Positions 1,288-56,600 of a DNA stretch of 64,000 nt are shown in pieces. The stretch comes from Thermodesulfovibrionales bacterium (GTDB lineage Bacteria; Nitrospirota; Thermodesulfovibrionia; Thermodesulfovibrionales; SM23-35), in the NCBI GenBank assembly GCA_041658585.1, contig JBAZZX010000008.1, positions 15,365 to 79,364 on the forward strand, in the 5' to 3' direction. The position numbers were made by a program, and so were the translations under genes. Below the pieces are notes generated by a model that was not told where the DNA came from, searched no databases, and saw nothing but the letters and a program-made list of their open reading frames with translations. Numbering within the stretch: position 1 is the first letter of the stretch; each line of letters begins with the position of its first letter.

Positions 1288-3696
1288 ATGGCAAGGGTAC
1301 CGATAAGCATAGAAGAGGAGATGAAGGGCTCATATCTCGATTATGCCATGAGCGTAATCATAGGAAGGGCTTTGCCCGAAGTCAGGGACGGCTTAAAGCC
1401 TGTCCAAAGGAGGATCCTCTATGCGATGTTCAGAGAGGGTCTTCTTCCGGGAAAGAAATATTCAAAATCCGCCGGTGTGGTCGGCGAGGTCTTAAAGAAA
1501 TATCATCCACATGGCGACACGGCAGTATATGACGCAATGGTCAGACTTGCACAGGACTTCAACATGCGTTACCCTTTGGTTGACGGTCAGGGCAACTACG
1601 GGTCCGTTGACGGCGACCCGGCCGCTGCCTACCGGTACACCGAGGCTAAGCTTGCAGCCTTTGCAGAGGAACTCCTTGCCGATATCGATAAAAATACCGT
1701 TGATTTCACGGCGAATTTCGATGAAACCACTGAAGAACCTCTGGTCCTGCCGTCAAGGATACCGAATTTAATCGTAAACGGGTCCACTGGAATTGCCGTT
1801 GGAATGGCCACCAATATACCGCCGCATAATCTCGGCGAGATTATCGACGCCCTTATTCTCTTGCTCGAAAATCCCGATGCAACCCTGAAAGACCTGCTCA
1901 CTTATGTTAAAGGACCTGATTTCCCGACAGGCGGGATCATTCATGGGACTGACGGCATCATGCATGCATACAACGAAGGAAGAGGCATTATAAAGATCAG
2001 GGCAAAGGCCAGGATAGAACGGGAATACAGAGGAGGAGAAAACATTATCGTTACCGAACTCCCCTATCAGGTCAATAAGGCGAGATTAATCGAGAAGATC
2101 GCTCAATTGGTAAGGGAAAAAACCATCGAAGGTTTATCTGAAATAAGAGATGAATCCGACAGGGACGGGATCAGGATCGTCCTTGAACTGAAGAGGGGAG
2201 AGATAGCCGAGGTTATTTTGAACAACCTTTTCAAACATACACAGATGGAATCCACCTTTGGGATAATCCTGCTTGCGCTCGTCAACAACCAGCCCAAGGT
2301 GCTTGCGTTAAAGAAACTGCTCGGTCATTTTCTTCAGCACAGGCGGGATGTTGTTCTGAGGAGGACACGGTTTGAACTGAAAAAGGCCGAGGAAAGGGCG
2401 CATATTTTAGAAGGACTGAAAATAGCCCTCGACCATCTTGATGCGATCATAGCATTGATCAGAAGTTCAAAGAACCCTGAAGAAGCCCGGATCGGACTGA
2501 TGCGGGATTATCCGTTGACCGAGATTCAGGCCCAGGCAATACTCGAGATGAGGCTCCAGAGACTGACCGGACTGGAGAGGGAAAAGATTGTAAAGGAATA
2601 TACGGATATTTTGAAAGAGATAGAGCGGCTAAAGGCCATTCTTGAGAGCGACGCCCTTGTAGTGCAGATTATAAAGGATGAACTTGTAGAGATCAGGAAC
2701 AAATATGCCGATGAGCGGAAGACGGAGATTTCTACGGATACAAAGGAACTGACCCTGGAAGATCTTATAACGGATGAGGAGATGGTGATAGCGCTCTCCC
2801 ATCAGGGGTATATCAAAAGGAACCCCCTCAGCGCTTACCGGAGCCAGCGCCGGGGCGGCAAAGGGCTTATCGGCATGGAAACAAAAGAAGAGGATTTTGT
2901 CAGCGAGCTCTTTATCGGCGCTACTCATGATTACATGCTCTTCTTTTCAAATATGGGACGCCTTTACTGGCTGAAGATATATCAATTGCCTGAAGCGGGC
3001 CGCGCTGCAAAAGGGAAAGCCCTCATAAATCTCCTTGCTTTGTCCGAAGGCGAAAAGATAACGACAGCCCTTCCCGTCCGCGATTTCAAGGACAGCTTCC
3101 TTATCATGGTCACCAAGAACGGCACGGTTAAAAAGACCGCCCTTGAGGAATACAGCAATCCGCGCGGGAAAGGTATTATTGCAATTACCCTTGATAAAGG
3201 CAATGAGCTGATCGCGGTACGAAAGACCGACGGTAAAAGCGATCTTATTATAGGGACCAAGAAGGGTCTCGCAATAAGGTTCAACGAAGAGGATGTCCGG
3301 GGCATGGGACGCACTGCAAAAGGGGTCAAGGGCATTAGACTTATGAAAGGCGACGAGGTTGTTTCTGCTGAAGTTGCCGCTGACAGGACCGCGATCCTGA
3401 CAGTTACTGAAAAGGGGTTCGGCAAGCGTTCAATGGTAGAAGAACACCCCGTGCAAAGCAGGGGCGGCAAAGGGGTCATCGCAATCAAACTTACTGAAAA
3501 AGGCGGCAAGGCCGTCGGTCTCATGCAGGTAAGGGATGAAGACGAGGTCGTTATGATAACAAGTTCCGGGAAGCTCATCAGGACCCTTGCAGGCAACATC
3601 TCTCTCCTTGGAAGAAACACCCAGGGTGTGAAGCTCATGGACGTTGAAGGAGATGACAAGATCGTCAGCATCGGCAGGGTGGCTGAAAAGGATTAA
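1288..3696 (+). CDS. gyrA: DNA gyrase subunit A
   Basis: 802-aa ORF with GyrA hallmarks: [26 protein letters not shown], the catalytic Tyr region [11 protein letters not shown], and a C-terminal repeated beta-pinwheel region. AGGAG lies upstream of the ATG. Confidence 0.97.
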
Positions 3697-3704
3697 TCCG
3701 TAAA

Positions 3705-4370
3705 CTATTTCTCCTCGCCGAGCTCCGTATGCCGGATCATCTTCCCCTTGCACATGTAAATAATCATCTCGCAGATATTCGTTGCGTGGTCTGCAATCCG
3801 CTCAAGATACTTTGCGATATACGTTCTCTTTACCGCTAAAGGAATATTTTTAGGGTCCTGAATCATGAATGACAGAAGCTCCTCAAAGTTTCTTACTGTG
3901 AGGTCATCCACTTCATCATCCCGTTTAATCACTTCGTAGGGCAGCCTTGAACAGCCTGTGACAAAAGAGTCAAGGGAATCCCGCACCATTGATTGGGAGA
4001 TCTCTGCCATCCTCGGTATGTTCACAAAAGGTTTCAACTGCGGTTCTTCATTCAGTTCTATCGTCCTTTCGGCAATGTTGACTGCGAGATCACCCATCCT
4101 CTCAAGGTCTGTCGTTATTTTCATGGCAGTAGTGATTAACCGCAAGTCGCTTGCCATCGGCTGTCTCAGGGCGATGAGTCTCACACATTCTTCATCTATC
4201 CTTACATCGAGCGCATTAACAAGATGGTCCCTTTGGATGACTTCCTTTGCAAGCTCGCTGTCCCTTTCTACAAGGGCTTTCACGGAATCGCGTATGGCGT
4301 TCTCGACCATACAGCCAAGCTTTAATATATTTTGCCTTAATTCCTTCAGCTCATTGTCAAAGATAGCCAT
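3705..4370 (-). CDS. phoU: phosphate signalling/transport accessory protein PhoU
   Basis: 221 aa, two PhoU-type helical repeats (…DLERMGDLAVNIAE…, …YLERIADHATNICE…). It is the last gene of the pstSCAB-phoU order, and its start abuts the pstB stop. Confidence 0.9.
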   Translation of the reverse strand: MAIFDNELKELRQNILKLGCMVENAIRDSVKALVERDSELAKEVIQRDHLVNALDVRIDEECVRLIALRQPMASDLRLITTAMKITTDLERMGDLAVNIAERTIELNEEPQLKPFVNIPRMAEISQSMVRDSLDSFVTGCSRLPYEVIKRDDEVDDLTVRNFEELLSFMIQDPKNIPLAVKRTYIAKYLERIADHATNICEMIIYMCKGKMIRHTELGEEK

Positions 4371-5131
4371 TATCCGAATCTCCCTGTTATATATTCTTCA
4401 GTCAATTTATTAGCCGGATTCACAAAGATAGTATTTGTGTCTCCAAATTCAACCAGCTCCCCTATATACATGAATGCAGTATAATTCGATATTCTCGCCG
4501 CCTGCTGCATGTTATGGGTCACTATTACTATGGTAACAGTTTTCTCCAGTTCCTGAAGCAGGTTTTCTATATGCCCCGTTGATATGGGGTCCAGCGCCGA
4601 GGTAGGCTCGTCAAAGAGAATTACTTCCGGCTCCTGTGCAAGCGACCTTGCAATGCAGAGCCTCTGCATCTGTCCTCCGGAAAGGCCGAGTCCGGGCTCA
4701 TTGAGTTTGTCCTTTACCTCTTTCCATAGATCGGCTTTTACAAGTGCATTTTCTACAATCTCATCGAGCAGGCTCTTCTTTTTTATCCCCCGCAGCCTGG
4801 GTCCGAATGCAACATTTTCATAGACGGAACTCGGGAAAGGGTTCGGTTTCTGAAAGACCATGCCTACCCTGCGTCTTAATTCGATAACATCCGTGTCCTT
4901 ATCGTATATATTTACACCCTGAAAGAGAGCCCGGCCTTCTACCCTCGAAGACGGAATAAGGTCGTTCATCCTGTTCAGGGCCCTCAGGAGCGTTGATTTT
5001 CCGCAGCCGGAAGGACCAATGATTGCGGTAATCCTGTTGATCTCGATGTCGAGCGCTATATTCTTCACCGCTATAAAATCGCCATAATAAATATTAAAGT
5101 CTTTTATCTCGAATATGTTTTTATCTACCAC
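4370..5131 (-). CDS. pstB: phosphate ABC transporter ATP-binding protein PstB
   Basis: Walker [13 protein letters not shown] signature LSGGQMQR, Walker [12 protein letters not shown]. Sits between pstA and phoU. Confidence 0.95.
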
Positions 5132-6024
5132 GATCGTTTCTTTCTTTGCCTTGAACGTAAAATGATCCCTAAAAGGTTCATGCTGAATACCAATAAAATT
5201 AATACAAGAGCTGTCCCATATTGTATGGGTCTTGTTTCCTCTATATGAGTGCCGGCTGTTGCCAGAACATAAATATGATATGGCAAAGCCATAACAGGCT
5301 CAAATAACGATTTTGGTATCCCGGGGGTAAAGAATGCGGCAGCGGTAAACATAATGGGAGCCGTCTCTCCCGATACCTTTGCAGTCCCAAGAATTGCACC
5401 GGTCAGGATTCCCGGCATGGCAGTCGGCAGAACTACCTTTCTGATAGTTTGCCATTTCGTTGCGCCACACGCAAGGGATGCCTCTCTGAAGCTGAACGGG
5501 ACAGCTTTTAACGCTTCTTCCGATGTCGAAATGATATAGGGCAGAACCATTATAGCAAGTGTCAGGGAACCTGCAAGCAGACTCATACCAAAGTTAAGCG
5601 CAACCACAAAGATACCGAGGCCAAAGAGCCCGAATACGACAGAGGGCACACCGGCAAGGGTATACATGGACATCATGACTGCCGTAAGCATAAACCCCGG
5701 TTTTGAATATTCGGCCAGGAAGATTGCGGTTGTTACCCCGATGGGGATAACAAAGATCATGCATAACATGGTCAGCAGGACTGTGCCCATAATAACCGGG
5801 AAAATGCCTCCCTGAGTCATGGCTTCCAGCGGAGGCTGTGTTATAAAATCCCAGCTTAGAACCTGCAGTCCATAATAAGCGACAAAAAATAATATGATGA
5901 AAAGTGTTATTGCTCCCGTAAAACCGAAGGTCCTCATCAGGGACAGGAAAAAACCCTGTTTGAGATTAAACTTTTTCCTGCGGACAAGCCCGAAAGGTTT
6001 ATGGATTTTTTCCATTCCCGGCAT
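5125..6024 (-). CDS. pstA: phosphate ABC transporter permease PstA
   Basis: 299-aa multi-TM permease with the binding-protein-dependent transport loop (…[20 protein letters not shown]…). Overlaps pstB and abuts pstC. Confidence 0.9.
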
Positions 6025-7031
6025 TATACCTTTTCTCCTATTCTCACCGAACGGTATTTCTTTGATACGAAGTTCGAGATGAAACTCAAGATAAAGGTGA
6101 TGAAAAACAGGATCGCGCCGACGCCGAACAGCGCATGGTAATGGAGGCTGCGGTAAGGCGCTTCAGCCATCTCCGCCGCAATAGCAGCAGGCATCGGTCT
6201 GGCGGCGTCAAATATCCAGTGGGGAACAACGGCTGCGCCTCCTGCAACCATCAGGACAATCATGGTCTCGCCGATGATCGTTCCGATGCCGAGGATTACG
6301 GCAATGCTTAACCCTGAAACGGAAGAAGGGATGACCACTTTCCATATAGTCTCCCACTTGTCTGCGCCAAGCGAGTATGAAGCCTCCCGGTATGTGCGCG
6401 GGACCGCAGTCAGCGCGTCCTCTGCGATACTCGCTATAACAGGTATTGCCCTTACCGTAAGCATTAAGGCAGCAGTGGTAATATTCAGTCCCGATGCTAT
6501 GAATAATTTGTCATAACAAAAATCCGCCAGGGTGGTTGAGATAAAAGGGATATGGGTACTTTGCAGCAGTTCCGGAAGCTTTTCCGAAAGCATCGGTGAA
6601 AGCCGGTTAGAGAGTATAGGCGCTATTATGACCATGCCGAAAAAGCCGAGGACGACAGAGGGAAAGCTTGCGAGCATTTCTATCATCGGCTTCAAAAACT
6701 CCTTGACTCTGTGGTTAGCAACCTCTGCTATGTAAACTGCTGTTCCAAGACCTAAAGGGATAGCCATAAGAGCAGTAAGGATTGTAACAGCAAGCGTGCC
6801 CATAATAAGCGGCCACATACCGAAACTCGGAGGGTCATAGGTAGGGTACCAAGCCATTCCAAAGATGACCTTTGAAACCCCGGCTTTATAAAAAATATAA
6901 AACGCTTCTTTAAAGAGAAAAAAGGCAATAAAAAGGAGGACAAGAACCGAGAGCAGTCCTACAGAACTTACTGCAATTTCAACAAACTTCTCTTTTGTCT
7001 GCCATTTCATAATTGTAATAAAAAGGTTCAA
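6024..7031 (-). CDS. pstC: phosphate ABC transporter permease PstC
   Basis: 335-aa multi-TM permease (…EASYSLGADKWETIWKVVIP…), positioned between pstS and pstA. Confidence 0.9.
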   Translation of the reverse strand: MNLFITIMKWQTKEKFVEIAVSSVGLLSVLVLLFIAFFLFKEAFYIFYKAGVSKVIFGMAWYPTYDPPSFGMWPLIMGTLAVTILTALMAIPLGLGTAVYIAEVANHRVKEFLKPMIEMLASFPSVVLGFFGMVIIAPILSNRLSPMLSEKLPELLQSTHIPFISTTLADFCYDKLFIASGLNITTAALMLTVRAIPVIASIAEDALTAVPRTYREASYSLGADKWETIWKVVIPSSVSGLSIAVILGIGTIIGETMIVLMVAGGAAVVPHWIFDAARPMPAAIAAEMAEAPYRSLHYHALFGVGAILFFITFILSFISNFVSKKYRSVRIGEKV

Positions 7032-7095
7032 GGATTAGAGGGTCCAAGGGGCCAAGTCAAGAAAAGCCGGGAACCATCGAACCCAATCCCAATCT

Positions 7096-7908
7096 TTATT
7101 TTATACTCACATACTTTACTTCATTAACAATCTTCTGCCCGTCTTTAGAAAGCATGAAGTCAATGAATTTCGCTATAACGCCGGCAGGCTTTCCATTTGT
7201 GTACATAAACAGGGGTCTTGCAATAGGCCATGAACCGTCGCGCACCGTATTTGCAGAAGCTGATTTGCCGTTTACCGTAAGCGCTTTTACGCTTCTATCA
7301 ATATACCCGATGCCGATATACCCGATCGCAAATCTATTTTGTGAAACGGTCTGGACAGCCTGACCGTTTGAGGCAACGAGCAGTGCATCAGGTTTTACCT
7401 TGTCGCCCTTAAGGATCTTTTCTTCCCAGACCTCATAGGTGCCCGAGCTTGTATCTCTGGAAACCGTAGAGATAGGTCTGTTCGGACCGCCGAGATCTTT
7501 CCAGTTGTTGATCTTCCCGTTATAAATATCCCTGAGCTGTTCCGTGGTGATATCTTTGATCTTCATTGAGGGGTGTACAACCGGAACAATCCCGTCAAGG
7601 GCAACCTTATGGCCGGTGAGCGTAACCCCTTTCCCCTTTGCAGAGGCTACCTCTTTATCCTTTGCCTCACGGGAACTTGTTGCAATATTTGTCGTGCCGT
7701 CGATCAATGCCTTGATGCCGGTTCCCGAACCGCTTCCTGATACGAATACTTTTGCGGCGGGATTCTTTTTCATAAAGACCTCGGCGCCCTTCTGTGCAAT
7801 CGGCAGGACCGTTGTCGAACCGTCAATCCGAAGGTCCTCTGCATATGAGACCCCCATAATTGAACAGACAAATAAGACCGATAAAAATACCGTCATAATC
7901 TTTTTCAT
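7096..7908 (-). CDS. pstS: periplasmic phosphate-binding protein PstS
   Basis: Signal peptide MKKIMTVFLSVLFVCSIMGVSYA and a PBP fold with SGSGSGTG and SRDTSSGT phosphate-binding motifs. GGAGG RBS upstream; first gene of the pst operon. Confidence 0.9.
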   Translation of the reverse strand: MKKIMTVFLSVLFVCSIMGVSYAEDLRIDGSTTVLPIAQKGAEVFMKKNPAAKVFVSGSGSGTGIKALIDGTTNIATSSREAKDKEVASAKGKGVTLTGHKVALDGIVPVVHPSMKIKDITTEQLRDIYNGKINNWKDLGGPNRPISTVSRDTSSGTYEVWEEKILKGDKVKPDALLVASNGQAVQTVSQNRFAIGYIGIGYIDRSVKALTVNGKSASANTVRDGSWPIARPLFMYTNGKPAGVIAKFIDFMLSKDGQKIVNEVKYVSIK

Positions 7909-9107: not shown

Positions 9108-10427
9108 TTAATGTCCCATATGCATCATATTGTTTTCGGTCATTTTTTTCGTTGAGGCAGGACTGAACCGTAAATAGCCTTCAATGGAGAATGGGAGTTC
9201 CCCGTATATTCTTCTGAGATCACGCTCAACAGGAGAGACCGTGCAAAGCGCTCCGATTGATATTGATATGTTATGACTGCTGAAAATGGTCCGGGCCGTT
9301 CCGAGGGTAAAAGCACTGATTGAAAAAAGATCGCGTGCCTTTTCCTCTTCAAGTCCTAATTCTTCACCGGATTTTTTTATAAATTCCATCCTTGTGAATA
9401 ATGCATTTTCCCCGAATTGATAATCCGCCTCTGCCAGAAATGAATTTTGTGCTTTGCCGTGATCCGGTTTGTTCATTCCCCAAACCAGTGATGTTGAAAG
9501 CGTGCTGTCAGAGGAAACAGGATAGTTCCAGATAAGAGATGCGGTTGTACGGTGAATGCTCACCCCCGGCTCAAGGACTTCAGGTTCTTTGATATACCCG
9601 TGAGAAAACTGCAGGCAGGTATTGTTTGAGGGATTCATAGAAAGCCTTATGCTCCCGGAATCGAATCTCGGTTCATCAATGTCATACCTTTTTTCATCCG
9701 GTTCCCTTCCATTGAAGAGGGAGGTATCGATCTTAAACTGTTTGTAAAAATAACCTGCCGTTATTACGCCGAATGTTACATGGGATGAATCCTGCCAGTG
9801 ATGGCCGAGAGGCGCATCCGGATTATTCTGTGCCGATGGCCTGTGCAGGTATGTGGGCGGGCCGAGAGCGGGCTCTCCGGGAAGACCGAAGTAGAGGAAG
9901 AGACCGGAATTCCTTCCTGTTGCAAGACCATATGAAACAGATAACTCGCCAAAAAGATCATGGGGGTGCTGCCGGTCGATAAGCCTCCTGCCATGCCAGG
10001 TTTCACCGCTCTGGAAGAGAAGAGGATATCCTTTCCCCCCTTCAGTCAGCAGATCGAGTGATAGCATACTTCTCAGCATGAGCGCTGAATTATCACCAAG
10101 TTGGCGCTTTCCCATGATCATAAACCAGTTTGGCGCGTCAAATTTCTCATTTCCCCTTGTGCCGTCACTCCCTGCGTCCTGGTTGGTATATCGGAGATAG
10201 ACATTCCAGTGCAACATGAAATCCCATGATCCGGATTTGAAATGATGCCCATGCAGGGATGATGAATCCGGAAGCCAGCTTGTTCCGGAGCCCTCCCGCT
10301 GCATAGGCTGTCCCTGAAAGAGTGCGCTCTGCATGTCCATCTGTGTTTCTGCGCGGCTATCCATAGGAAAAACGAGGATTATACATACCATGAAGCAAAC
10401 ACTGATAATAATTCTGAATGAATTCAT
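9108..10427 (-). CDS. secreted, probably outer-membrane protein of unknown function (439 aa) with a Met/His-rich C-terminal tail
   Basis: Signal peptide MNSFRIIISVCFMVCIILVFPMDSRAE and a GGAGG RBS. The body is rich in aromatic/Gly beta-strand-like segments, and the tail reads …KKMTENNMMHMGH. No named family recognised. Confidence 0.7.
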   Translation of the reverse strand: MNSFRIIISVCFMVCIILVFPMDSRAETQMDMQSALFQGQPMQREGSGTSWLPDSSSLHGHHFKSGSWDFMLHWNVYLRYTNQDAGSDGTRGNEKFDAPNWFMIMGKRQLGDNSALMLRSMLSLDLLTEGGKGYPLLFQSGETWHGRRLIDRQHPHDLFGELSVSYGLATGRNSGLFLYFGLPGEPALGPPTYLHRPSAQNNPDAPLGHHWQDSSHVTFGVITAGYFYKQFKIDTSLFNGREPDEKRYDIDEPRFDSGSIRLSMNPSNNTCLQFSHGYIKEPEVLEPGVSIHRTTASLIWNYPVSSDSTLSTSLVWGMNKPDHGKAQNSFLAEADYQFGENALFTRMEFIKKSGEELGLEEEKARDLFSISAFTLGTARTIFSSHNISISIGALCTVSPVERDLRRIYGELPFSIEGYLRFSPASTKKMTENNMMHMGH

Positions 10428-11094: not shown

Positions 11095-11192
11095 TCGGAA
11101 GAAGAAGTCATGAACGAGTTCCGGAGGGTCAGGGATGAGATAAAAGAAAAAATAGTCAATTTTCTAATGGAAATAGCCGATAGCTGATAGCT
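11095..11192 (+). pseudogene. duplicated 3' fragment of arsC
   Basis: About 90% identical to 8811-8908 (TCGGAAGAAGAAGTC.TGAACGAGTTCCGGAGGGTCAGGGATGAGATAAAAGAAAAAATAGTCAATTTTCTAA…GCTGATAGCT). It lacks the catalytic N-terminal two thirds of the gene. Confidence 0.8.
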
Positions 11193-11786: not shown

Positions 11787-12941
11787 TTACAAAGCTACCT
11801 GCAGGGTCAGCTGAATTCTTTTGTCGTCTTTCTTGTCTGATTGTTTGTAGTTCACGGTATCGTAATCTAAAACAATCATGTTCTTGTGCGGCTTGTCGAG
11901 ATGATATGCGGCGCCGACAATATATCTGTTATTTTCATCGTTTTTTGCATCCGTATTAGGATCAAAATGGTCATAACGGCCGATGACGCTGAATTGTTTC
12001 AAGGGTTTAATCTCGGTGAAGAAGGAATAGCCGTCTTTCTTGTTCTCATCATCGCCCTTTTGATTGCCTTTGCCCCAATAGTATTGGCCTGTTAAGGTAA
12101 CATATTGATGTTCAAAACTTACAAATCCCAGATTGGCTGTCCAGTCAGGCTTTGTGTCTTTATTGCCTTGGCCGGTTAACCCGAAATAAGAGAATTGGAG
12201 TCCCGGAACGATGTCAGGGAGCGGCCGTAGAGTGAGTCTTCCTTCTATAACCTTATTTTCATTCTTTTCTGCTGCAGCATATCCGCTGCCGTTATAAATT
12301 CCGACAGACATGCTTCCATAACGGCCGGGGTAATCTTTTGTGACATTATTTTGATAATTCTCGTCGATTGTGCCGCCTAACAAGGAAGCGAATGTTACTC
12401 CAATATCGGCTGAATTGAGCGTATTGTTTCTTTCGATAAACATGGTGTCCTGGCATCTATAGAAGTTGACATGTTCTTCATAGTCAAGCCAAGGCATATG
12501 CACGACGCCTACTTCGATGTTAGGTTTTGTAAGGAACGCAAAGTCGGGAAGATTGAACTGACCGTATGCATACTTAATCCTTACGGCGATAGACCCGTCA
12601 TAGTTGCTGTAAGTCTTATTTTTTGAGTCTTTTGCCTCGTCTTTGACCTGTGTTATGTCGAGTGTCATTCTGGCGCTGAACCATGGCATGAACTCTTTCT
12701 GCACCGTTAAATACCCGCGCTTTATGGCAAATCTGCTGAAATCCGTACCGTTGTTCTCCTGCCCGTCCTGATAGGAGAGATACCATAAAAGACCGAATTT
12801 GAAGCCTTTCAAAGCGTTGACAACCTTCTCAATATCTTTCTGGTCGACGCTTTTTTCCTCTGCTGCCGATGCTGCAGAATATACTGCTATCAGCAGCAAG
12901 CAGCATAAACTGACAACCAAAACCGAAAACCTTTTCTTCAT
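11787..12941 (-). CDS. outer-membrane beta-barrel porin, phosphate-selective porin O/P-like
   Basis: Signal peptide MKKRFSVLVVSLCCLLLIAVYSAASA and alternating beta-strand pattern throughout. I moved the start from the track's 13019 to the ATG at 12941, which is preceded by AGGAGG. A Pho-box array lies 110 bp upstream. Confidence 0.75.
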   Translation of the reverse strand: MKKRFSVLVVSLCCLLLIAVYSAASAAEEKSVDQKDIEKVVNALKGFKFGLLWYLSYQDGQENNGTDFSRFAIKRGYLTVQKEFMPWFSARMTLDITQVKDEAKDSKNKTYSNYDGSIAVRIKYAYGQFNLPDFAFLTKPNIEVGVVHMPWLDYEEHVNFYRCQDTMFIERNNTLNSADIGVTFASLLGGTIDENYQNNVTKDYPGRYGSMSVGIYNGSGYAAAEKNENKVIEGRLTLRPLPDIVPGLQFSYFGLTGQGNKDTKPDWTANLGFVSFEHQYVTLTGQYYWGKGNQKGDDENKKDGYSFFTEIKPLKQFSVIGRYDHFDPNTDAKNDENNRYIVGAAYHLDKPHKNMIVLDYDTVNYKQSDKKDDKRIQLTLQVAL

Positions 12942-13050
12942 ACTTTTCCTCCTTTTTCCTTTTTCATTAATCCGTGTAACAAGCAGATGATTCCAATCCC
13001 CGGCTTTCTGACCTGCCACGCATGAATTAGAATAATTTAATATGTGAATG

Positions 13051-13286: not shown

Positions 13287-15092
13287 TTAAGCTACTGGTA
13301 AGATAAGGAGTATTTTTGTGCCTGTGCCTTCACTGCTTTGGATCTCCATGTCCCAGCCATGCGCCTTTACAAGGTGTTTGACTATAGCCAGTCCGAGACC
13401 GGTCCCCCCGAGATCTCTTGAACGGGCCCTGTCAACCCTGTAAAACCGCTCGCCAAGACGGGATAGGTGTTTCTTCGGAATACCGATGCCGGTATCCTCA
13501 ACGGAAATTTCGATGAAGGATAAGGGATGAGGGATGAGGGACAAATCAGCCGTTTGTTTTGCATTCTGCATTTTGCATTCTGCATTCTGCATTCTTATTG
13601 TTACTCCTCCCTTGTCCGTATACTTTATCCCGTTGTCGACAAGGTTGATTAGTATCTGTATCAGACGGCCTCTGTCCGCGTTTATCCGTATGACTTCGGG
13701 AGATATCTCTTTTTTGAGATAGAGACCCTTGGCGTCGCTCTTGTCTTTCAGGGTTTCAAAAACGGTCTCCGTCACTTCATCGGGATTGACATCCGTCTTT
13801 TCAATCGTTATATCTCCAAGCTCTATCCTTGAGAGGGTGAGAAGATCATTGACAAGGGAGTTCAGGCGTTCGCTGTTGCTTTTAATTGTCTCAAGGAATT
13901 TGAAGGCACTCTCCCTGTCATCGAGGGCGCCTTCAAGGAGCGTTTCCGCAAAACCTTTTATTGCCGTGATGGGGGTCTTTATCTCGTGGGAGACATTTGC
14001 AACGAAATCTTTTCTTACCTCTTCAAGTTTTTTCAGTCTGGTGATATCATGAAACGTCAACACAACGCCGGATAATTCTTCGATGGTTTTATGAGAAGAG
14101 AAGGGTGAAGCGGTGACCATCAGGTGAAGCTCCCTCGGATGGTCGATCTCTATTTCACGGGATATTTTGTGACCGCCTTCGGCAACCATATCTATCAACT
14201 CCATAAGCTCGGCCTTCCGGAATGCCTCCATTAATGTTTTGCCGTCTATGCCCGATGATATGCCGAACAGTTTTGAAACGGCGTCATTACTCAGTATAAT
14301 CCTGCCCTTTGTATCGGTCAGTATCAGGCCGTCCGACATATTTTGGATAATCGCCGCTATCTTCTGTTTTTCATCTTCGCTCTGTTTCAGTTTTGTCTGC
14401 AGTTCATCCGCCATATCGATGATATTTTTGCCGAGCTGACCGAGTTCATCATTGTTTTTCAGAAACAATCTTTTTTTCAAATTCCCTTCCGCCACTTCTT
14501 TTGAAAATTCCGCGATCTCCTCGATAGATTTTGTGACCTTTCTTGTCTGGAAAAGTCCTGTAAGAAGCGCTATGAAAAGTATGGAAAGAGAAGCGATAAT
14601 CACCCTCATCCTGATCTCATTGACAGCCTGTTCAACCTCGTAGAGGGGCATTGACAGCCTCAGGAATCTTTTCGGGTCCGTATCGGTTGATATGGCAAGA
14701 TAAAACTGATTCCTGCTGAGAGTGCTGCTGAACCTTACAGAACTCCCTGTGCCGCTTATATCGGCTTCCTTAATCTCCGGCCTGTTTGCATGGTTCTCCA
14801 TGATATTAGCCGGCTCGTCGGAATCTCCCAAAACTTTTCCTGAATCGTCAATAACCGTTACCCTTGCTCCGGTCCGGTCCTTGAATTGTTTGCTGAAAGC
14901 GTCAAGGTTGTCTGAAAAAGAAAGAGGTATCTGATCCGCAATCAGGCGGGCCTGTATACCGAGGCTTTTCTTGAGGTTTGCAATATAGCTGTCCTTTACT
15001 TCGCGTGAGAGATAAAATTCAAGGGAAAGAAGCAGCAGAGGAGCGATAATAATATAAATCAGCACTATCCTTCTGAAAAGAATATGCTTCAT
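13287..15092 (-). CDS. phoR: phosphate regulon sensor histidine kinase PhoR
   Basis: TM/HAMP/PAS N-terminus, H-box VANVSHEIKTPITAIKGF, and HATPase N/G boxes (LINLVDNGIKYT, DTGIGI, GGTGLGLAIVKH). Overlaps phoB by 1 nt. Confidence 0.9.
   Translation of the reverse strand: MKHILFRRIVLIYIIIAPLLLLSLEFYLSREVKDSYIANLKKSLGIQARLIADQIPLSFSDNLDAFSKQFKDRTGARVTVIDDSGKVLGDSDEPANIMENHANRPEIKEADISGTGSSVRFSSTLSRNQFYLAISTDTDPKRFLRLSMPLYEVEQAVNEIRMRVIIASLSILFIALLTGLFQTRKVTKSIEEIAEFSKEVAEGNLKKRLFLKNNDELGQLGKNIIDMADELQTKLKQSEDEKQKIAAIIQNMSDGLILTDTKGRIILSNDAVSKLFGISSGIDGKTLMEAFRKAELMELIDMVAEGGHKISREIEIDHPRELHLMVTASPFSSHKTIEELSGVVLTFHDITRLKKLEEVRKDFVANVSHEIKTPITAIKGFAETLLEGALDDRESAFKFLETIKSNSERLNSLVNDLLTLSRIELGDITIEKTDVNPDEVTETVFETLKDKSDAKGLYLKKEISPEVIRINADRGRLIQILINLVDNGIKYTDKGGVTIRMQNAECKMQNAKQTADLSLIPHPLSFIEISVEDTGIGIPKKHLSRLGERFYRVDRARSRDLGGTGLGLAIVKHLVKAHGWDMEIQSSEGTGTKILLILPVA
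13512..13595 (-). repeat. 84-nt block of 12 phased heptanucleotides inside phoR, in frame
   Basis: Sense strand: (AGAATGC)x3 AAAATGC AGAATGC, then three non-repeat heptads, then CCTCATC CCTCATC CCTTATC CTTCATC. It encodes RMQNAECKMQNAKQTADLSLIPHPLSFI between the N-box region and the DTGIGI box. Confidence 0.85.
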
Positions 15093-15790
15093 TATTTTCC
15101 GTCGAAGAAGTAACCTATCCCGCGCAGGGTTTTTATATATACCGGTTTCGCCGGATCTTCTTCTATACTTGAACGCAGTCTTCTGATGTGTACGTCGACA
15201 GTCCTCGGCTCAACAAACGCCTCATCACGCCATACGGCATCGAGGAGCTGGTCTCTGCTGAATACCCTGCCTTTTCTTTCGGCAAGAAAAAGGAGCAGTT
15301 TGAACTCTGTTGCGCTCAGTTTGACGGACTTCCCTTTGACTGCAACGGTATATCTTTCCGAGTCTATATCGAGGTCTCCTGTTTTCAATGTCCTGACGGA
15401 TGCGGGTTGCTCTGCGGATCTCCTCAGCACAGCCTTGACACGCGCTATAAGCTCTCTCGGGCTGAAAGGCTTTGTCATATAATCGTCCGCCCCCATCTCA
15501 AGACCGATTATCCTGTCTACTTCCTCTCCCTTTGCAGTAAGCATGATAATCGGCAGCCTTGCAGTCTTTGGATCGTTTCTTATGATGCGGCAGATCTCCA
15601 TCCCCTGAACGCCGGGCAGCATAAGGTCAAGGATAACCAGGTCGTATTTCCCTTTCCTGATTTTTGCGAGCGCATGTTCCCCGTCCGAGGCTGAATCAAC
15701 GGCAAAGCCTTCCTTTTTCAGGTTATATAAGACCAGATCCGCAATATCGGCCTCGTCATCAACAACAAGGACATGCTTTAAGGTATCCAC
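15092..15790 (-). CDS. phoB: OmpR-family response regulator PhoB
   Basis: Receiver domain (VVDDE…DLVILDLMLPG…) plus a winged-helix C-terminal domain. Immediately upstream of phoR and overlapping it. Confidence 0.9.
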   Translation of the reverse strand: MDTLKHVLVVDDEADIADLVLYNLKKEGFAVDSASDGEHALAKIRKGKYDLVILDLMLPGVQGMEICRIIRNDPKTARLPIIMLTAKGEEVDRIIGLEMGADDYMTKPFSPRELIARVKAVLRRSAEQPASVRTLKTGDLDIDSERYTVAVKGKSVKLSATEFKLLLFLAERKGRVFSRDQLLDAVWRDEAFVEPRTVDVHIRRLRSSIEEDPAKPVYIKTLRGIGYFFDGK

Positions 15791-30467: not shown

Positions 30468-31751
30468 ATGTATTTCATATATAGCCTCATATATATTATC
30501 GTAATCATCATTCTTTTGCCTTTTGAATATCTCAAAAGACCGGCGGAGATTAGAAGAAAATGGCTTAGAGATAAGTTCGGTCTTTTAGATGCATCCTTCA
30601 TCCTTAACCCCTCATCCGTTGTTTGGGTCCACGCCGTATCAGTCGGCGAGGTTATGGCCGCATCACCGCTTTTAAAAAAATTAAGAGAACGCTATCCGGG
30701 AAAAAGGATAATCCTTTCCACTATAACCGACACCGGGCAAAAAGTTGCAAGAGAAAGAGCGCCCGAAGGAACAGCCGTTGTTTATCTTCCCTTTGATATC
30801 CCTTTCATATTGAACAATGTTTTGAACAGGGTAAAACCCGACCTGCTGATCGTCATTGAAACCGAACTCTGGCCCAACCTGATAAGGGGTTTCAATGAGA
30901 AAGGAATACCCGTACTGCTGCTCAATGGAAGGATATCCGAAAAATCATTTAAAGGTTATAAAAAGGTATCACGCTTTATGAAAAAAGTCCTTTCCCATGT
31001 AGATTTCTTCGGTATGCAGAGTGAGGAATACGCAGACAGGATCAGGCAATTGGGAGTTGATGCCCGCAGAGTTGTGACATTAGGCAATTTCAAATTTGAT
31101 ACCATACCTCCTTCAGAACTCCCGCTATGGACAAAGGAATTGCAGGGTCCGGTTATTGTTGCAGGCAGCACCTTTGAAGGTGAGGAAGAACTGATGACCG
31201 ATGTTTATCTTAAGCTTAGGGAAGACTTCCCTGATATCAATCTGATCATCGCCCCACGCCATCCCGAGAGGTTTAAACCCGTTGAAGAAATGCTCAAATC
31301 AAAAGGGGTCTCATTTGTAAAACGTTCCGGAATTGATAGCTTAAAGTCGCAGAACGTTGAACGCAGAACGTTGAACGGTTTTATCGTCCTTCTCGACACA
31401 GTCGGCGAACTGTCATCCGTTTACGGCATATCGGACATCGCCGTTATCGGAAAGAGTTTCAGAGGCCGTGGAGGCCAGAATCCCCTCGAACCCGCCTACT
31501 GGGGCAAGCCCATCATATGCGGCCCGCATATGGAGAATTTTCCGATTATCGGGGAGTTTTACAAAGAAGGCGCTGCTATCCGGGTCGGAGAAGAAGACCT
31601 CCTCACAAAATTAAAAGACCTCCTCCTTTCACCCGAAAAGTCAAAAGCAATCGGCTCAAAGGCACGGATGCTATACAATAAAAACGCCGGAGCAGTTGAA
31701 AAGGCGATGGAGATTATTGAAAGGCGAATTTCTAAAACGGATTATTCATAA
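30468..31751 (+). CDS. waaA: 3-deoxy-D-manno-octulosonic acid (Kdo) transferase
   Basis: 427 aa with …VWVHAVSVGEV…, …ETELWPN…, …DTVGEL… and …GGQNPLEPA…, the WaaA/KdtA hallmarks. Confidence 0.9.
   Translation: MYFIYSLIYIIVIIILLPFEYLKRPAEIRRKWLRDKFGLLDASFILNPSSVVWVHAVSVGEVMAASPLLKKLRERYPGKRIILSTITDTGQKVARERAPEGTAVVYLPFDIPFILNNVLNRVKPDLLIVIETELWPNLIRGFNEKGIPVLLLNGRISEKSFKGYKKVSRFMKKVLSHVDFFGMQSEEYADRIRQLGVDARRVVTLGNFKFDTIPPSELPLWTKELQGPVIVAGSTFEGEEELMTDVYLKLREDFPDINLIIAPRHPERFKPVEEMLKSKGVSFVKRSGIDSLKSQNVERRTLNGFIVLLDTVGELSSVYGISDIAVIGKSFRGRGGQNPLEPAYWGKPIICGPHMENFPIIGEFYKEGAAIRVGEEDLLTKLKDLLLSPEKSKAIGSKARMLYNKNAGAVEKAMEIIERRISKTDYS
31349..31376 (+). repeat. tandem GCAGAAC GTTGAAC x2 (four phased heptamers) inside waaA
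   Basis: Perfect 14-nt duplication GCAGAACGTTGAAC GCAGAACGTTGAAC, encoding …SQNVERRTLN… just before the DTVGEL motif. Confidence 0.8.
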
Positions 31752-50293: not shown

Positions 50294-51200
50294 AGACCTT
50301 TTAGGTATAAAGGAACTTTCAAAGGAAGAGATATACCTTTTCCTCGATACCGCAGCAGGTTTTAAGGATGTTATCGGAAGGGATATCAAGAAGGTCCCCG
50401 CCCTCCGGGGCAAGACGACCGTCAATCTCTTCTTTGAGCCGTCTACCAGGACAAGGACGTCCTTTGAGCTTGCTGCAAAAAGACTAAGCACGGATGTTAT
50501 TAATTTTTCGGTCCCGACAAGCAGTGTGATCAAGGGCGAAAGCCTGATTGACACGGCGCTCACTGTCCAGGCTCTTGGCGCTGACTTTATCATCATCAGG
50601 CATTCCTCATCCGGGGCGCCGCACCTCCTTGCAAAGAAAATGAAGGCGTCTGTTATCAATGCCGGTGACGGCACGAACGAGCATCCGACACAGGCGCTGC
50701 TTGACGCCTTTACGATAAAAGAAAAGAAGGGTAAAATCGAAGGTCTTGAGATAGCAGTCGTGGGAGATATTGCCCATAGCAGGGTTGCCAAGTCGAATAT
50801 ATATTGTTTGACAAAACTTGGCGCAAAGGTGAGATTGATCGGTCCTCCGACCCTGATACCGAAAGAGATAGAAGAACTCGGCGTCGGTATTTTTCATAAT
50901 ATGGAAGACGGCGTCAGGGGCGTGGATGTTCTGATGATGCTCAGGATTCAGATGGAAAGACAGGACAAGGGGTTCTTTCCGTCAACGGAAGAGTATTCCA
51001 AAAACTGGGGTCTGACAACAGACAGGCTTTCCCTCGCAAAAGACGATGCTATTGTGATGCACCCGGGGCCGATGAACCGTGGGATCGAGATCGTCTCTGA
51101 AATTGCGGACGGACCGAAGTCCGTAATCCTTGAGCAGGTTACAAACGGTATTGCCGTAAGAATGGCGGTCATGTATTTACTTGCAGGAGTCAAGAGATGA
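50280..51200 (+). CDS. pyrB: aspartate carbamoyltransferase catalytic subunit
   Basis: …[13 protein letters not shown]…, …HPTQALLD…, …HPGP… motifs. GTG start overlapping the pyrR end. Confidence 0.95.
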
Positions 51201-52501
51201 ATATCGTAATAAGGAATGGACATATTATTGACCCGTCACAGGGGATTGACGGAGTTGGGGACATATATATAGAAAGCGGAAAGATAAAAGAAATAAACAT
51301 AAAGAGCATGGAGCATGGAGCTCGGAGCACGGGGCAAAAACCGCAATCATCCGACGTCCGGATTATTGACGCAAGCGGGCTTCTGATTGTCCCCGGCCTT
51401 ATCGATATGCATGTGCATCTGAGAGAGCCGGGGTTTGAATACAAGGAGACGATAAGAACCGGAACTCTCGCTGCAGTCAAAGGCGGTTTTACGACAGTCT
51501 GCTGTATGCCGAATACAAACCCCGTAAATGACCATGCAAGCGTTACCGAATTCATCATAAGAAAAGCGAAACAGGAAGGTCACTGCACCGTTCATCCTAT
51601 CGGCGCAATAACCAAAGGCCAGAAAGGCGAAGAGCTTGCGGAGATAGGGACGATGAAGAATGAGGGCTGTATTGCCTTCTCCGATGACGGCCAGCCTGTG
51701 ATGAACAGCGCCATGATGCGCAGGGCGCTTGAGTATTCAAAGGCTTTCAAAGTGCCGGTCATCTCGCACAGTGAAGATCTTACCCTTTCAGACGGCGGAG
51801 TAATGAACGAAGGACTGACGTCCGTAACTCTCGGACTAAAAGGAATCCCGGCAGAGGCTGAACAGATAATGATTTTCAGGGATATCCTGCTGGCAGAGCT
51901 TACAGGCGGAAGATTGCATATAGCCCATGTATCAACTGCCGGTTCGGTACATCTTATCAGAGAGGCCAAACAAAGGGGGATAAACGTCACTGCTGAAACG
52001 TGTCCTCATTATTTCAGTATCACTGAGGACGCCGTTAAAGGATATAACACAAACGCAAAGGTCAACCCCCCTTTAAGAACAAGCCGTGATTTGGAAGCTA
52101 TAAAGGATGGGTTGAGGGACGGCGCTATCGACGCTATAGCAACCGACCATGCGCCTCATCATGTTGATGAAAAACTGCAACCCTTTGACATGGCCCCTTT
52201 CGGGATATCGGGACTTGAAACCGCGCTGAGTCTGAGCCTGCAGCTTGTAAGGGAAGGTGTTCTGACAAGAAAAGAACTCGTTGGAAAGATGACCCTGAAT
52301 CCTGCAAAGATACTCGGTCTTGATAAAGGCTTTCTAAAGCCCGGTTCCGAGGCGGAGTTGGTCGTGATAGACGAGAACAAAGAATTTGAGGTTAAGTCCG
52401 AACGATTTGTATCAAAAGGTAAAAACACGCCTTTTGAAGGAAGGATATTAAAAGGAATGCCTGTATTCACGTTTTGCAAAGGAAAACTCTATGAGCTGTA
52501 A
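51197..52501 (+). CDS. pyrC: dihydroorotase
   Basis: …[14 protein letters not shown]… metal-binding motif, …DHAPH… motif. ATGA overlap with pyrB. Confidence 0.93.
51304..51338 (+). repeat. five phased heptamers inside pyrC (GAGCATG GAGCATG GAGCTCG GAGCACG GGGCAAA)
   Basis: Read directly from the sequence. It encodes …[12 protein letters not shown]… in the loop between the N-terminal beta-strands, where dihydroorotases are normally about 10 residues shorter. Confidence 0.8.
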
Positions 52502-53693
52502 GGCGCTGCTGGTCCTTTCCGACGGCATTGTTTTTGAAGGAAAGAGTTTCGGCGCAAGCGGAGAGACGCTTGGCGAGGTTGTCTTCAACACCTCGATGAC
52601 AGGGTATCAGGAGATACTTACCGATCCTTCATACAGGGGTCAGATCGTTACCATGACCTATCCGCAGATGGGCAACTACGGTGTGAATGAAGAGGATATT
52701 GAATCTCTGAACGGCCCAAAGGTCGAGGGTTTTATTGTAAGGGAATATATCGATTTCCCGAGCAACTGGAGGACTAAAAAGTGCGGAGCGCAAAGCGCCG
52801 GGCGCGGAGTCATACACTCGTTAGGAGATTATTTGAAGGCTTATGGGATAGTCGGCATAGAACATATAGACACTCGCGCATTGACAAGGCATCTGAGAAA
52901 CCACGGCGCCCGGATGGGTATAATTTCTACCGTTGATCCTGATCCTGAAAGCCTTTTGAAAAAGGTGAAAAAACATCCCGGCATATCGGCCTTTGATTTA
53001 GTCAGGGATGTTACGGCGAAAGAGATATATAAATGGCAAGACGGAGTATGGAAGTGGAAACGGGAAGAAAAAGAAGCTGAAAAGGAATCCTCCGCCCTAC
53101 GCCCTACGCCCTCTGCATTTAAACGGGTGGTTGTTTACGACTTCGGAGTCAAATTCAACATCCTCCGTAATCTTGTTGACGCGGGGTTTGACGTTACGGT
53201 TGTGCCTGCGCAGACCCCTGCGGAAGCAGTGCTTGAAATGGACCCTGATGGGGTTATCCTCAGTAACGGCCCGGGAGACCCTGAGACAGTCACTTATGCA
53301 ATCGGGAATGCAAAAAAAATAATTGGCAAAAAGCCCGTCTTCGGGATCTGCCTGGGACATCAGATACTCGGTCTTGCAATGGGCGGCAGGACATATAAAC
53401 TGAAATTCGGCCATCACGGCGGCAACCATCCTGTCAAAGCTTTAGTTACCGGCAGGGTTGAGATAACATCTCAGAACCATAACTACTGCGTTGATATCAA
53501 CAGTCTTCGCGGCCGGGTCAGGCTTACCCATAAAAACCTCTACGACGGGACTGAAGAAGGCATGGAGCATGTGGAATTGCCGGTATTTTCCGTCCAGCAC
53601 CATCCGGAAGCAGGCCCGGGACCGAACGACGCCGCGCATATTTTTAAAAGATTCAGAGATTTGATAGAGGGAGTTTGTGCCGAAAAGAACTGA
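52491..53693 (+). CDS. carA: carbamoyl-phosphate synthase small (glutaminase) subunit
   Basis: …[17 protein letters not shown]…, catalytic GICLGHQ and …QHHPE…. Confidence 0.95.
52784..52811 (+). repeat. four phased heptamers inside carA (CGGAGCG CAAAGCG CCGGGCG CGGAGTC)
   Basis: Encodes …[11 protein letters not shown]… between SNWR and SLGDYLK. E. coli CarA reads SNFRNTEDLSSYLK here, about 10 residues shorter. Confidence 0.7.
53093..53113 (+). repeat. three phased heptamers inside carA (CGCCCTA CGCCCTA CGCCCTC)
   Basis: 21 nt, exactly 7 codons (ALRPTPS), in the inter-domain linker. The linker is about 7 residues longer than in E. coli CarA. Confidence 0.8.
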
Positions 53694-56600
53694 TATTAAA
53701 AAGATACTCCTCATAGGCTCCGGCCCTATCATAATCGGCCAGGCATGTGAGTTCGACTATTCCGGCACGCAGGCCTGCAAGGCTTTAAGGGAAGAGGGAT
53801 ATAAGGTCGTCCTGGTCAATTCCAATCCTGCAACCATTATGACGGACCCTGAGACTGCCGATGTAACATACATCGAGCCGTTAACTGCCGACATCCTTGA
53901 AATGATAATAAAGAAAGAAAGACCGGATGCCATCCTCCCTACAATGGGCGGCCAGACCGCACTGAACCTCGCTGTCGAACTTGCCGAAAAAGGCATACTT
54001 GATAAATATAAGGTTGAACTCATCGGAGCAAAGCTTGACGCTATCAGGAAGGCTGAAGACAGAGAGCTTTTTAAAGAGGCCATGAAAAAGATCGGGCTTG
54101 ATGTCCCGGTATCCGCACATATCGGGTCTATGAAAGACGGGCTTGAAGCGGTCGAATATATAGGTTTCCCGGCTATCCTCAGACCTTCTTTTACCCTGGG
54201 AGGGACCGGAGGCGGCATTGCGTACAACATAGAGGAGTATCAGGTATTGCTTGAGCGGGGGTTAAAGCTCAGTCCCGTCGGGCAGGTGCTGGTGGAAGAG
54301 TCCGCCCTTGGCTGGAAAGAGTATGAGCTTGAGGTCATGCGGGATGTGAAAGATAATGTCGTGATAATATGTTCAATAGAGAACTTTGATCCGATGGGGG
54401 TCCACACCGGCGATTCGATTACTGTTGCGCCCGCACAAACCCTCACCGATAAAGAATACCAGAGGATGCGCGATGCGTCTATCGCGATCATACGCGAGAT
54501 CGGGGTCGATACCGGCGGCTCGAACATCCAGTTCGCCCTGAATCGGGATAACGGCAAAATGATAGTTATAGAGATGAACCCAAGGGTCTCACGAAGCTCG
54601 GCCCTTGCATCAAAAGCGACCGGTTTCCCCATAGCAAAGATCGCGGCAAAGCTTGCAGTAGGGCTGACCCTCGAGGAGATCCCGAATGACATAACAAGAG
54701 AAACCCCTGCGTCCTTTGAACCGACGATAGATTACGTAGTTACAAAGTTTCCCCGGTTTGCCTTTGAAAAATTCCCGGAAGCTGACCCAACCCTTACAAC
54801 TCAGATGAAATCCGTTGGCGAGGTTATGGCAATCGGGAGGACGTTTAAAGAATCCCTGCAAAAGGCGATAAGAAGCCTCGAGATCGGAACACGCGGTTTT
54901 GAAGACGTCCAGGCTGATATGAACGTCATCAAATCTAAACTCAAAACTCCTAACGCTGAAAGAGTCTGGTACATTGCACAGGCAGTGCGGGAGGGAATGA
55001 GCATTCAGGAAATCCATGAGCTCACATGGATCGACCCGTGGTTTCTGGAGAATATAAAACAGATTATAGAAATGGAAGGGCGAATTTCTGCAGAAGCCCC
55101 GAAGCTCGGAAGTTCGGACCCTGAACTGATCTTCCCGCCTTCTCATCTTCATAACTTCTTGCCTTTGCTGAAGGAGGCCAAACAGCTCGGGTTCTCCGAC
55201 AGGAGGATTGCCCAGCTTCTCAATCTGCAAGAAGCCGATATAAGGCATTTAAGAAAGCGGAACAGCATAAAAGCTGTTTACAAGATGGTCGATACCTGTG
55301 CCGCAGAGTTTGCCGCTTACACCCCTTATCTGTATTCGACTTATGAAATACCATTTTACACAATTCATCCTTCATCCCTCACACTTAATCCTTTGGTCGA
55401 GTGTGAAGCCAACCCCTCGGACAGGAAAAAGGTCATTATACTCGGCTCGGGTCCGAACAGGATCGGCCAGGGCATTGAATTCGACTATTGCTGCGTCCAT
55501 GCAGTGTTTGCATTGAAAGAACTCGGTTATGAAACGATTATGGTCAACTGCAATCCCGAGACGGTCAGCACCGACTATGACACTGCCGACAGATTATATT
55601 TTGAACCCTTAACTATAGAAGATGTTTTGAACATTATAGACGCCGAAAAACCGGAAGGAGTTATTGTTCAGTTCGGAGGACAGACTCCGTTGAAACTTGC
55701 AGTGCCTCTTGAAAGGGAAGGTGTTAAAATCCTCGGCACTTCGCCTGATTCTATTGACAGGGCGGAGGACAGGAGACGCTTTAAAGAACTCCTTCATAAA
55801 CTCAACCTGAAACAGGCCGACAGCGATACGGCGATGTCGGTTGACGAGGCTTTATCCGCTGCCGGAAGGATCGGGTATCCTGTTATGGTAAGGCCGTCAT
55901 ATGTGCTCGGCGGCAGAGCGATGGAGATCGTCTATGACGAGAATTCACTCAGTGAATATATGAAGAGGGCCGTCAAGGCATCTCCGGAGCATCCCGTGCT
56001 CGTGGACAAATATCTTGAAGACGCCATAGAAGTAGACGTAGATGCTATCTCGGACGGCAAAGACGTAATCATCGGCGGCGTTATGGAACATATAGAGGAG
56101 GCGGGCATCCACTCGGGCGATTCAGCCTGTTCCCTTCCCCCGCACTCTCTGCCTAAAGAAATCGTCAGAGAGATAAAACGCCAGACAAAGGCCCTTGCCA
56201 GGGAACTAAATGTCATAGGTCTTATGAACGTTCAGTTCGCCGTCAAGAATCAGGACATTTATATCCTTGAAGTCAATCCAAGGGGATCAAGGACAATCCC
56301 CTTTGTCGGAAAGGCAACCGGCGTTCCATTGGCAAAGCTTGCCGCCAAGGTTATAGTCGGCAGGACATTAAAGGAATTAGGGGTTACGAAAGATAAAAAT
56401 ATCAAACATATTGCAGTGAAAGAAGCCGTTTTCCCGTTTGACAGGTTCCACGGAGTCGATTCCATCCTCGGCCCTGAGATGAAATCTACCGGCGAGGTAA
56501 TGGGTATAGACAAGGATTTCGGCATTGCCTTTGGAAAATCCCAGATATCCTGCGGCAACAGGATCCCTTTGGAAGGCAGGATATTTATCAGTCTGAAAGA

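Follow-up and report, generated by a model that had tools for sequence, protein, structure and literature searches.

A 64,000-nucleotide stretch of contig JBAZZX010000008.1 from a Thermodesulfovibrionales bacterium (assembly GCA_041658585.1; referred to as the window) contains a gene for a phoR/pnpS-type sensor histidine kinase of 601 amino acids (positions 13287-15092, minus strand), and the part of this gene that encodes the catalytic domain holds a block of 84 nucleotides made up of two heptanucleotide arrays. In our view the block is probably a long-lived pair of heptanucleotide simple sequence repeats (SSRs) located in a permissive loop of the kinase, where slippage turns the units over and selection passes only the in-frame changes. 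A coding microsatellite held in frame by selection is a known kind of element, and neither a new system nor a new mechanism comes to light here. The tract is, however, an unusually clean natural case of a repeat that persists within an essential catalytic domain although the length of its unit is not divisible by three.

The block, for which both strands of the region 13300-13800 were read, occupies positions 13595-13512 with the minus strand as the sense strand, and its sequence is exactly the one described in a first-pass annotation of this DNA. Family 1 (13561-13595) consists of five units, AGAATGC three times followed by AAAATGC and AGAATGC, and encodes R500-MQNAECKMQNA, which forms the end of the β strand 496-504 and the beginning of the loop. 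The spacer (13540-13560) has three heptads, AAAACAA ACGGCTG ATTTGTC, encoding KQTADLS. The first of these heptads looks like a decayed family-1 unit, and the spacer is conserved as AAAACAA TCTGATG ATTTGTC in four relatives (L161, L164, L165 and L167; L and P numbers designate individual homologues). Family 2 (13512-13539) has four units, CCTCATC CCTCATC CCTTATC CTTCATC, and encodes LIPHPLSFI, the last unit giving S-F-I, the first residues of the β strand 526-533. The whole block corresponds to 28 codons (R500-I527) of the 601-residue open reading frame and takes in codons of both flanking β strands; the peptide QNAECKMQNAKQTADLSLIPHPLS, which had been quoted as lying between GGVTIRM and FIEISVEDTGIGI, is correct.

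Tandem Repeats Finder detects period 7 in both arrays, with 5.1 copies, 93% matches and a score of 65 at positions 13560-13595, and with 4.3 copies, 86% matches and a score of 46 at 13512-13541. These are the two highest period-7 scores of the window, in agreement with the earlier statement that the block is its largest and most regular example. Exact period-7 repeats (at least two copies plus 3 nucleotides) occur four times in the 64 kb, as compared with 0.06 on average, and never more than one, in 100 shuffles that preserve composition (second-order Markov); head-to-tail units of seven nucleotides are present beyond chance, and no comparable excess over the same shuffles was observed for periods 4-6 in the window. 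The family-1 unit is not enriched elsewhere in the window (5 matches against 3.55 expected, four of the five inside the array). The shortness of each array is the only point in favor of the idea that codon usage produced the period by chance or that the assembly is at fault, and we assign this idea a negligible probability in view of the four exact repeats. An identical 601-residue protein is on record in NCBI, JGI, Logan and ENA and comes from two contigs, which excludes an artefact of assembly, and orthologous arrays are found in independently assembled relatives.

The position of the block in the fold was taken from an AlphaFold2 model of the kinase based on an alignment of 57 sequences. 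In this model the N-box helix spans residues 474-490 (codons of N483, N487 and K490 at 13623-13646, minus strand; these residues are invariant in the alignments) and is followed by the β strand 496-504. The segment 506-523 has a predicted local distance difference test (pLDDT) score below 50, and the β strand 526-533 then runs directly into the G1 box, D533-x-G535-x-G537. The codons of the box (D533-T-G535-I-G537) lie at 13482-13496 on the minus strand, as computed from the start of the open reading frame, and D533, T534, G535 and G537 are invariant columns. Block means of pLDDT amount to 86-92 over most of the surrounding catalytic domain but are lower, at 67-80, in the part right after the loop (strand 526-533 with the G1 box). 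According to the model, the block encodes the tip of a β hairpin, the two strands of which are the one that follows the N-box helix and the one that leads into G1, and this tip is solvent-exposed and probably disordered. The first-pass annotation had suggested a surface loop near the ATP lid. The surface loop agrees with the model, but the lid is a separate low-confidence segment (residues 547-566), and the loop is located at the end of strand 526-533 opposite the G1 box; judging from topology and not from coordinates, the hairpin tip would point away from the nucleotide pocket. The Bergerat fold, the disruption of which had been considered, is predicted to be intact despite the repeat tract.

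The best structural matches of the model in the PDB are WalK, VicK and HK853, which share the same fold and the same hairpin, the length of this loop varying between kinases. Alignment to the solved catalytic domains of WalK and PhoR leaves about 16-18 extra residues in the query at the loop. From the N-box asparagine to the end of G1 there are 52 residues in the window's kinase, compared with a uniform 33-35 in orthologues outside the clade; the hairpin turn, which has about 6 residues in solved structures and in these orthologues, is about 18 residues longer in the window and, unlike theirs, is generated by a DNA microsatellite. The extra segment that had been proposed relative to other PhoR proteins is thus real. 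As an insert it stands in the sense of a lengthened segment, but it is neither recent nor specific to this genome, since orthologues down to about 62% identity have arrays in the same register.

The strongest evidence comes from close alleles of the gene. Scans of contigs gave no relative closer than about 65% identity among the matches listed, and the close alleles were retrieved singly; the DNA of eight of them (L161, L162 and L164-L169) was compared with the window, nine sequences in all. Outside the loop the eight alleles are 89-96% nucleotide-identical to the window. The part upstream of the loop measures 1497 nucleotides in all nine sequences, and the downstream part 216 nucleotides in eight of the nine, L168 having 219 with one extra codon at or near the 3′ end; there are no other indels outside the loop. 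Among the closest homologues (88-94% protein identity) differences in length are confined to the loop segment and come in steps of 7 residues, the loop having 38, 45, 52 or 66 residues in relatives of at least 88% identity. Whole units are polymorphic in copy number, as is characteristic of a microsatellite. Family 1 has two units in L161, L165 and L169, five in the window, L162, L164, L166 and L168, and 11 in L167, whereas family 2 has four units in the window, L161 and L164-L168 and a single one in L162 and L169. Differences in unit number are always multiples of three units, that is of 21 nucleotides or 7 amino acids; the smallest allele (587 amino acids) has 2 + 1 units and the window's (601 amino acids) 5 + 4, which amounts to two three-unit additions.

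Length variation had been predicted from the window's sequence, together with the contrary case of relatives that have the same segment without repeats; the relatives carry repeats. It had also been pointed out that 12 heptads equal 28 codons and that the frame is kept. The count is right, but it is not the reason why the frame holds, because each array changes by three units independently of the other. The series of 2, 5 and 11 units and of 1 and 4 units appears to display a selective filter that only three-unit steps survive.

Slips of one or two units break the frame, as seven is not a multiple of three, and in simulation they give products of 510-574 amino acids without the G1, F and G2 boxes. 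Such single-unit shifts are what a contingency locus would need, in which the tracts would turn PhoR off and on again (phase variation), a later slip bringing the frame back, and would alter the Pho output in a subpopulation. Intragenic heptanucleotide SSRs have been proposed as mediators of phase variation in Haemophilus influenzae (PMC2651432), and one allele, L167, reaches 11 units. The H. influenzae tracts (hmw1A/hmw2A and a TonB-dependent receptor gene) resemble the PhoR tract in that a 7-nucleotide unit lies in or beside an open reading frame and its gain or loss alters frame or expression. However, they are perfect, consist of 8-38 units, belong to genes of surface proteins and are out of frame in some strains (PMC2651432). 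The PhoR tracts are short, with five and four imperfect units, no long near-perfect tract was found apart from the 11 units of L167, and phoR is a housekeeping regulator and not a surface or restriction-modification gene. All of the approximately 25 close alleles examined are in frame, and the 57-residue out-of-frame tail had no match in a search of 5.8 billion proteins, a search of limited sensitivity. A switch of this type is therefore very unlikely in PhoR.

Two truncated proteins, P0123 (312 amino acids) and P0125 (153 amino acids), belong to the same 90% cluster as the window's protein; they come from contigs of 23 kb and 12 kb and end in out-of-frame tails. In both, the break lies upstream of the heptamer tract, which speaks against the switch as well, and the truncations probably have nothing to do with the SSR but stem from a frameshift or a sequencing error in another part of the gene.

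The arrays have also diverged in sequence. The family-1 unit is ARAATGC in the window, L164 and L167, ARAATTC in L162 and GGAGTGC in L168. Units are alike within an array (mean identity 0.91 in the window, 0.83 in L162 and 0.71 in L168), whereas the identity of units between arrays is 0.57-0.80 (0.78 for the window and L162, 0.57 for the window and L168), although the flanking gene is 93-96% identical. Units that are similar within one array and divergent between lineages constitute concerted evolution, here seen in the sequences of a single orthologous site and extending over deep divergence. Family 2 of the same length reads CCTTATC ACTCAAC CTTCATC CCTGGTT in relatives; the window's version is more regular than that of any relative, a sign that the array has probably turned over recently in this lineage.

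Heptamer arrays at this site are not restricted to close relatives. L003 and L081-L083 (62-65% identity) have arrays of the GTKAAAA type in the identical heptad register, and the corresponding peptides, KLKVKSE and KFKVQSE, predominate in the wider family. In L101 (43% identity) four TGCRGAR units are followed by four CYGAACT units at the same site (the arrays lie at about 1300-1380 of that sequence), and L098 has two other heptamer families at the same loop. The arrays of L101, L098 and L097 (43-55% identity) have been elaborated independently; their nearest relatives possess the short 33-residue form. The occurrence of arrays at one site in orthologues and in distant homologues marks the loop as a clade-wide hotspot of heptamer repeats.

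The sequence of the loop is hypervariable, with no conserved residue in the alignments. Seven other relatives (P0104/L170, P0029, P0031, P0037, P0039, P0090 and P0112) have the peptide PPYPPFTKGG in the same PhoR loop. In L170 (gene at 3001-4812) the codons for it form a G+C-rich palindrome, CCCCCCTTTA-C-TAAAGGGGGG, which is translated in frame and has a run of eight G right after it; this insert is a separate thing from the window's block. Toleration of an unrelated palindromic insert at the same point indicates that the loop is permissive.

These data also bear on whether the loop is adaptive. The length of the hairpin could be functional, through docking of the catalytic domain to the dimerization and histidine phosphotransfer (DHp) domain, the balance of kinase and phosphatase activity or contact with a partner, and the SSR would then supply variants in steps of 7 residues. 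On the one hand, the extended form is kept across the clade (40-60 residues, compared with 33-35 elsewhere), it was elaborated independently in L101, L098 and L097, and several length classes coexist in nearly identical genes. On the other hand, no residue of the loop is conserved, the model predicts disorder, the L170 palindrome is tolerated at the same place, and similar heptamer tracts in linkers of unrelated enzymes of the window point to mutation pressure and not to a function specific to PhoR. We regard the tuning loop as unlikely. Similarly unlikely is the idea that the tract is kept as an evolvability device, in which a lineage-specific propensity for 7-nucleotide slippage supplies both 7-residue length variants and transient OFF variants of PhoR. 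If that were true, populations of these anaerobes would diversify their Pho signalling, and the linkers of many housekeeping proteins (carA, carB, waaA, pyrC) would be remodelled likewise across Thermodesulfovibrionales.

Period 7 is enriched well beyond this gene. Exact period-7 repeats amount to 6.3 per 100 kb in the window, 10.6 in the close relatives and 3.9 in Thermodesulfovibrionales-type loci, compared with 0.69 in approximately 1.46 Mb from other phyla. Periods 4-6 are enriched far less consistently, periods 5 and 6 being raised only in the small sets of close relatives. When the PhoR loop is left out, the period-7 rate is, by our own count, still about 3 per 100 kb. Judged from these sequences, the lineage seems to have a mutational bias towards period 7.

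The window's other heptamer arrays are found within housekeeping genes (waaA, a dihydroorotase-like or pyrC-like gene, carA, carB, bioW and lpxK), mostly in linkers or at domain edges and in a stop-free sense orientation. The waaA/kdtA-like gene (30468-31751, plus strand) has two arrays. CATCCTT in 3.7 copies at 30592-30617 is translated as ASFILNPSS, close to where the Glycos_transf_N domain begins, and 2.1 copies of an exact 14-mer (CGCAGAACGTTGAA) at 31348-31377 are translated as SQNVERRTLN. In the amidohydrolase/dihydroorotase-like gene (51197-52501, plus strand), 3.7 copies of GAGCATG at 51304-51329 are translated as SMEHGARST at residue 36, in front of the Amidohydro_1 domain, which begins at residue 64. 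carA (52491-53693, plus strand) has 3.4 copies of CCTACGC at 53089-53112, in the linker that connects its CPSase small-chain domain with its GATase domain, and carB (53677-56982, plus strand) has 4.3 copies of TTCATCC at 55364-55393, in the part that separates the oligomerisation domain from the second pre-ATP-grasp domain; the unit family of the latter is common with PhoR family 2. Heptamer tracts seem to accumulate in the linkers of housekeeping enzymes, and the period-7 bias of Thermodesulfovibrionales seems to write 7-residue inserts into enzyme loops and linkers. Such inserts are relevant to the evolution of protein loops and also to annotation, where equivalog models narrowly miss the proteins that contain them, and in metagenomes the PhoR tract could serve as a marker for strain typing. 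One further array of the window, ATAGCTG in 2.9 copies (11173-11192), is intergenic and lies between a gene for a 439-residue outer-membrane protein and a gene with a SWIB domain.

The dimer pattern of CCTYCATC, a heptamer that may be favored or may spread between sites, recurs at four loci of the window (13512-13540, minus; 30595-30609, plus; 51652-51666, minus; 55362-55376, plus), with 5 matches against 0.79 expected from shuffles. Peptides of the HPSS type, derived from the CCTYCATC unit, are also present in the PhoR loop of P0032 and P0103 (64-66% identity). CTTCATC, the unit that closes family 2, already codes for the S-F-I with which the conserved strand begins.

Recurrence of the CCTYCATC unit is one of the observations that would fit a nucleic-acid element, in which the structure of DNA or RNA tunes the expression of phoR through an antisense G-quadruplex (G4), an mRNA hairpin or the footprint of a dispersed mobile repeat. 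In addition, 13512-13541 contains on its plus strand GGG three times and GG once, with a spacing of 4 nucleotides, a pattern resembling the G-rich heptamers that have been studied in Xanthomonas and Nostoc, as far as these are treated in PMC4692102. We consider an element of this kind highly improbable. The sequences of the units vary freely between lineages, and no orientation of the arrays but the sense one is free of stop codons, as coding constraint predicts. Each of the three forms was also considered separately. The sense RNA of 13610-13497 folds at -19.4 kcal/mol, compared with -19.0 for shuffles (z = -0.13). The GGGATGA repeats of the antisense strand offer only three GGG tracts, and only in the window; the pattern is absent from close relatives, and at least four conserved G3 tracts were not found. 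Inverted termini, terminal repeats and other hallmarks of a mobile or repetitive extragenic palindromic (REP)-like element were not seen in the window's block.

The mechanism that we propose for the slippage-driven SSR pair is as follows. The arrays would gain and lose units through slipped-strand mispairing at replication, in a loop that tolerates almost any length and sequence and is presumably close to neutral for kinase function. Changes of one or two units would cut the kinase short of its G1, F and G2 boxes and be removed by selection, and three-unit changes (21 nucleotides, 7 amino acids) alone would persist. Repeated gain and loss would keep the units of one array alike while the arrays of different lineages drift apart. 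In many bacteria it is the heptamers that are over-represented among long SSRs, which has been ascribed to polymerase slippage (Mrazek 2007, as reported in PMC4692102 and PMC4679880), and agreement with this over-representation is a reason to favor slippage.

Several points weigh against this interpretation. First, slippage is inferred here, and five and four units are short for high slippage rates. Second, the period-7 enrichment is based on few events (tens in number), and the PhoR loop is the source of some. Third, the long-standing, clade-wide retention of a loop of 40-60 residues may mean that the loop is of some benefit and not purely neutral. Finally, the recurrence of CCTYCATC and the presence of a family-1-like unit in the distant L101 go beyond simple local slippage and are not fully explained by it; either certain heptamers are favored or arrays are seeded from conserved local codons.

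Among known systems, the closest likeness is to the long prokaryotic SSRs with 7-nucleotide units (Mrazek, Guo and Shah 2007, as reported in PMC4692102 and PMC4679880), which share head-to-tail heptamers, differences in copy number between related genomes, a lineage-dependent excess of period 7 and slippage as the proposed cause. As they are presented in those two papers, however, surveys of this type stress intergenic heptamers and expect the units of coding SSRs to be multiples of three. The PhoR tract differs in that it sits in a catalytic domain, changes in triplets of units and persists at one orthologous site with concerted evolution. Abundant tandem heptamers as a trait of a lineage are also represented by the cyanobacterial short tandemly repeated repetitive (STRR) sequences, by TAACTGA in Beggiatoaceae and by GGGAATC/GGGGATT in Xanthomonas and Nostoc. 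In the accounts given in PMC4679880 and PMC4692102, these involve one or a few favored units that lie for the most part between genes and for which regulatory or G4 roles have been proposed, whereas the arrays of the window have diverse units (ARAATGC, CCTCATC, GAGCATG, CCTACGC and others) that are mostly intragenic and translated. A dispersed favored heptamer is not what the window presents, the recurrence of CCTYCATC being mild. Nothing specific was found in the literature on heptamer repeats in Nitrospirae or in histidine kinases.

The identity of the gene as a PhoR-type kinase, proposed in the first-pass annotation, is well supported by domain architecture and gene context, both read from sequence. 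The protein has a transmembrane segment, a sCache-like region and HAMP, PAS, HisKA and HATPase_c domains (domains from Pfam; HisKA 7e-22, HATPase_c 2e-25), and the combination of HisKA and a catalytic domain with invariant N-box and G1 residues identifies it as a histidine kinase. In NCBIfam the protein scores highest with PnpS (397.9 bits, cut-off 400) and with phoR_proteo (282.3 bits, cut-off 334.2); the PnpS score falls short by about 2 bits, and the loop insert itself lowers it. More than 6000 homologues were found, many of them named PhoR or PnpS in the source databases, and they occur in metagenome-assembled genomes of Thermodesulfovibrionales and other Nitrospirota.

Upstream of the kinase gene lies a gene for a phoB-type response regulator of the OmpR family (15092-15790, minus strand; Pfam Response_reg and Trans_reg_C; NCBIfam PhoB TIGR02154, 279.6 bits, cut-off 296.2), the stop codon of which overlaps the start codon of the kinase. 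The operon pstS-pstC-pstA-pstB-phoU (3705-7908, minus strand) is located 5-9 kb downstream on the same strand, and its products match the NCBIfam models for the PstS family, PstC, PstA, PstB and PhoU, all five above the cut-off. The kinase is thus linked to Pho genes, and phosphate-dependent control of the Pho type is predicted. Between phoR and the pst operon there are two outer-membrane/porin-like genes (9108-10427 and 11787-13019, both on the minus strand), one with a weak match to Porin_4 and the other without a family match, and these may be phosphate-regulated porins. The 5′ region of the gene at 11787-13019 contains a TCCTTTT repeat of 2.3 copies (12950-12965). Exact heptamer repeats are also found just 3′ of the phoR stop codon in four relatives (L164, 3615-3631; L165, 12146-12162; L096, 4729-4757; L092, 4369-4386), and their units are AAATGAA, AAGTTTG and TGAAGGG, and AAGTGTG.

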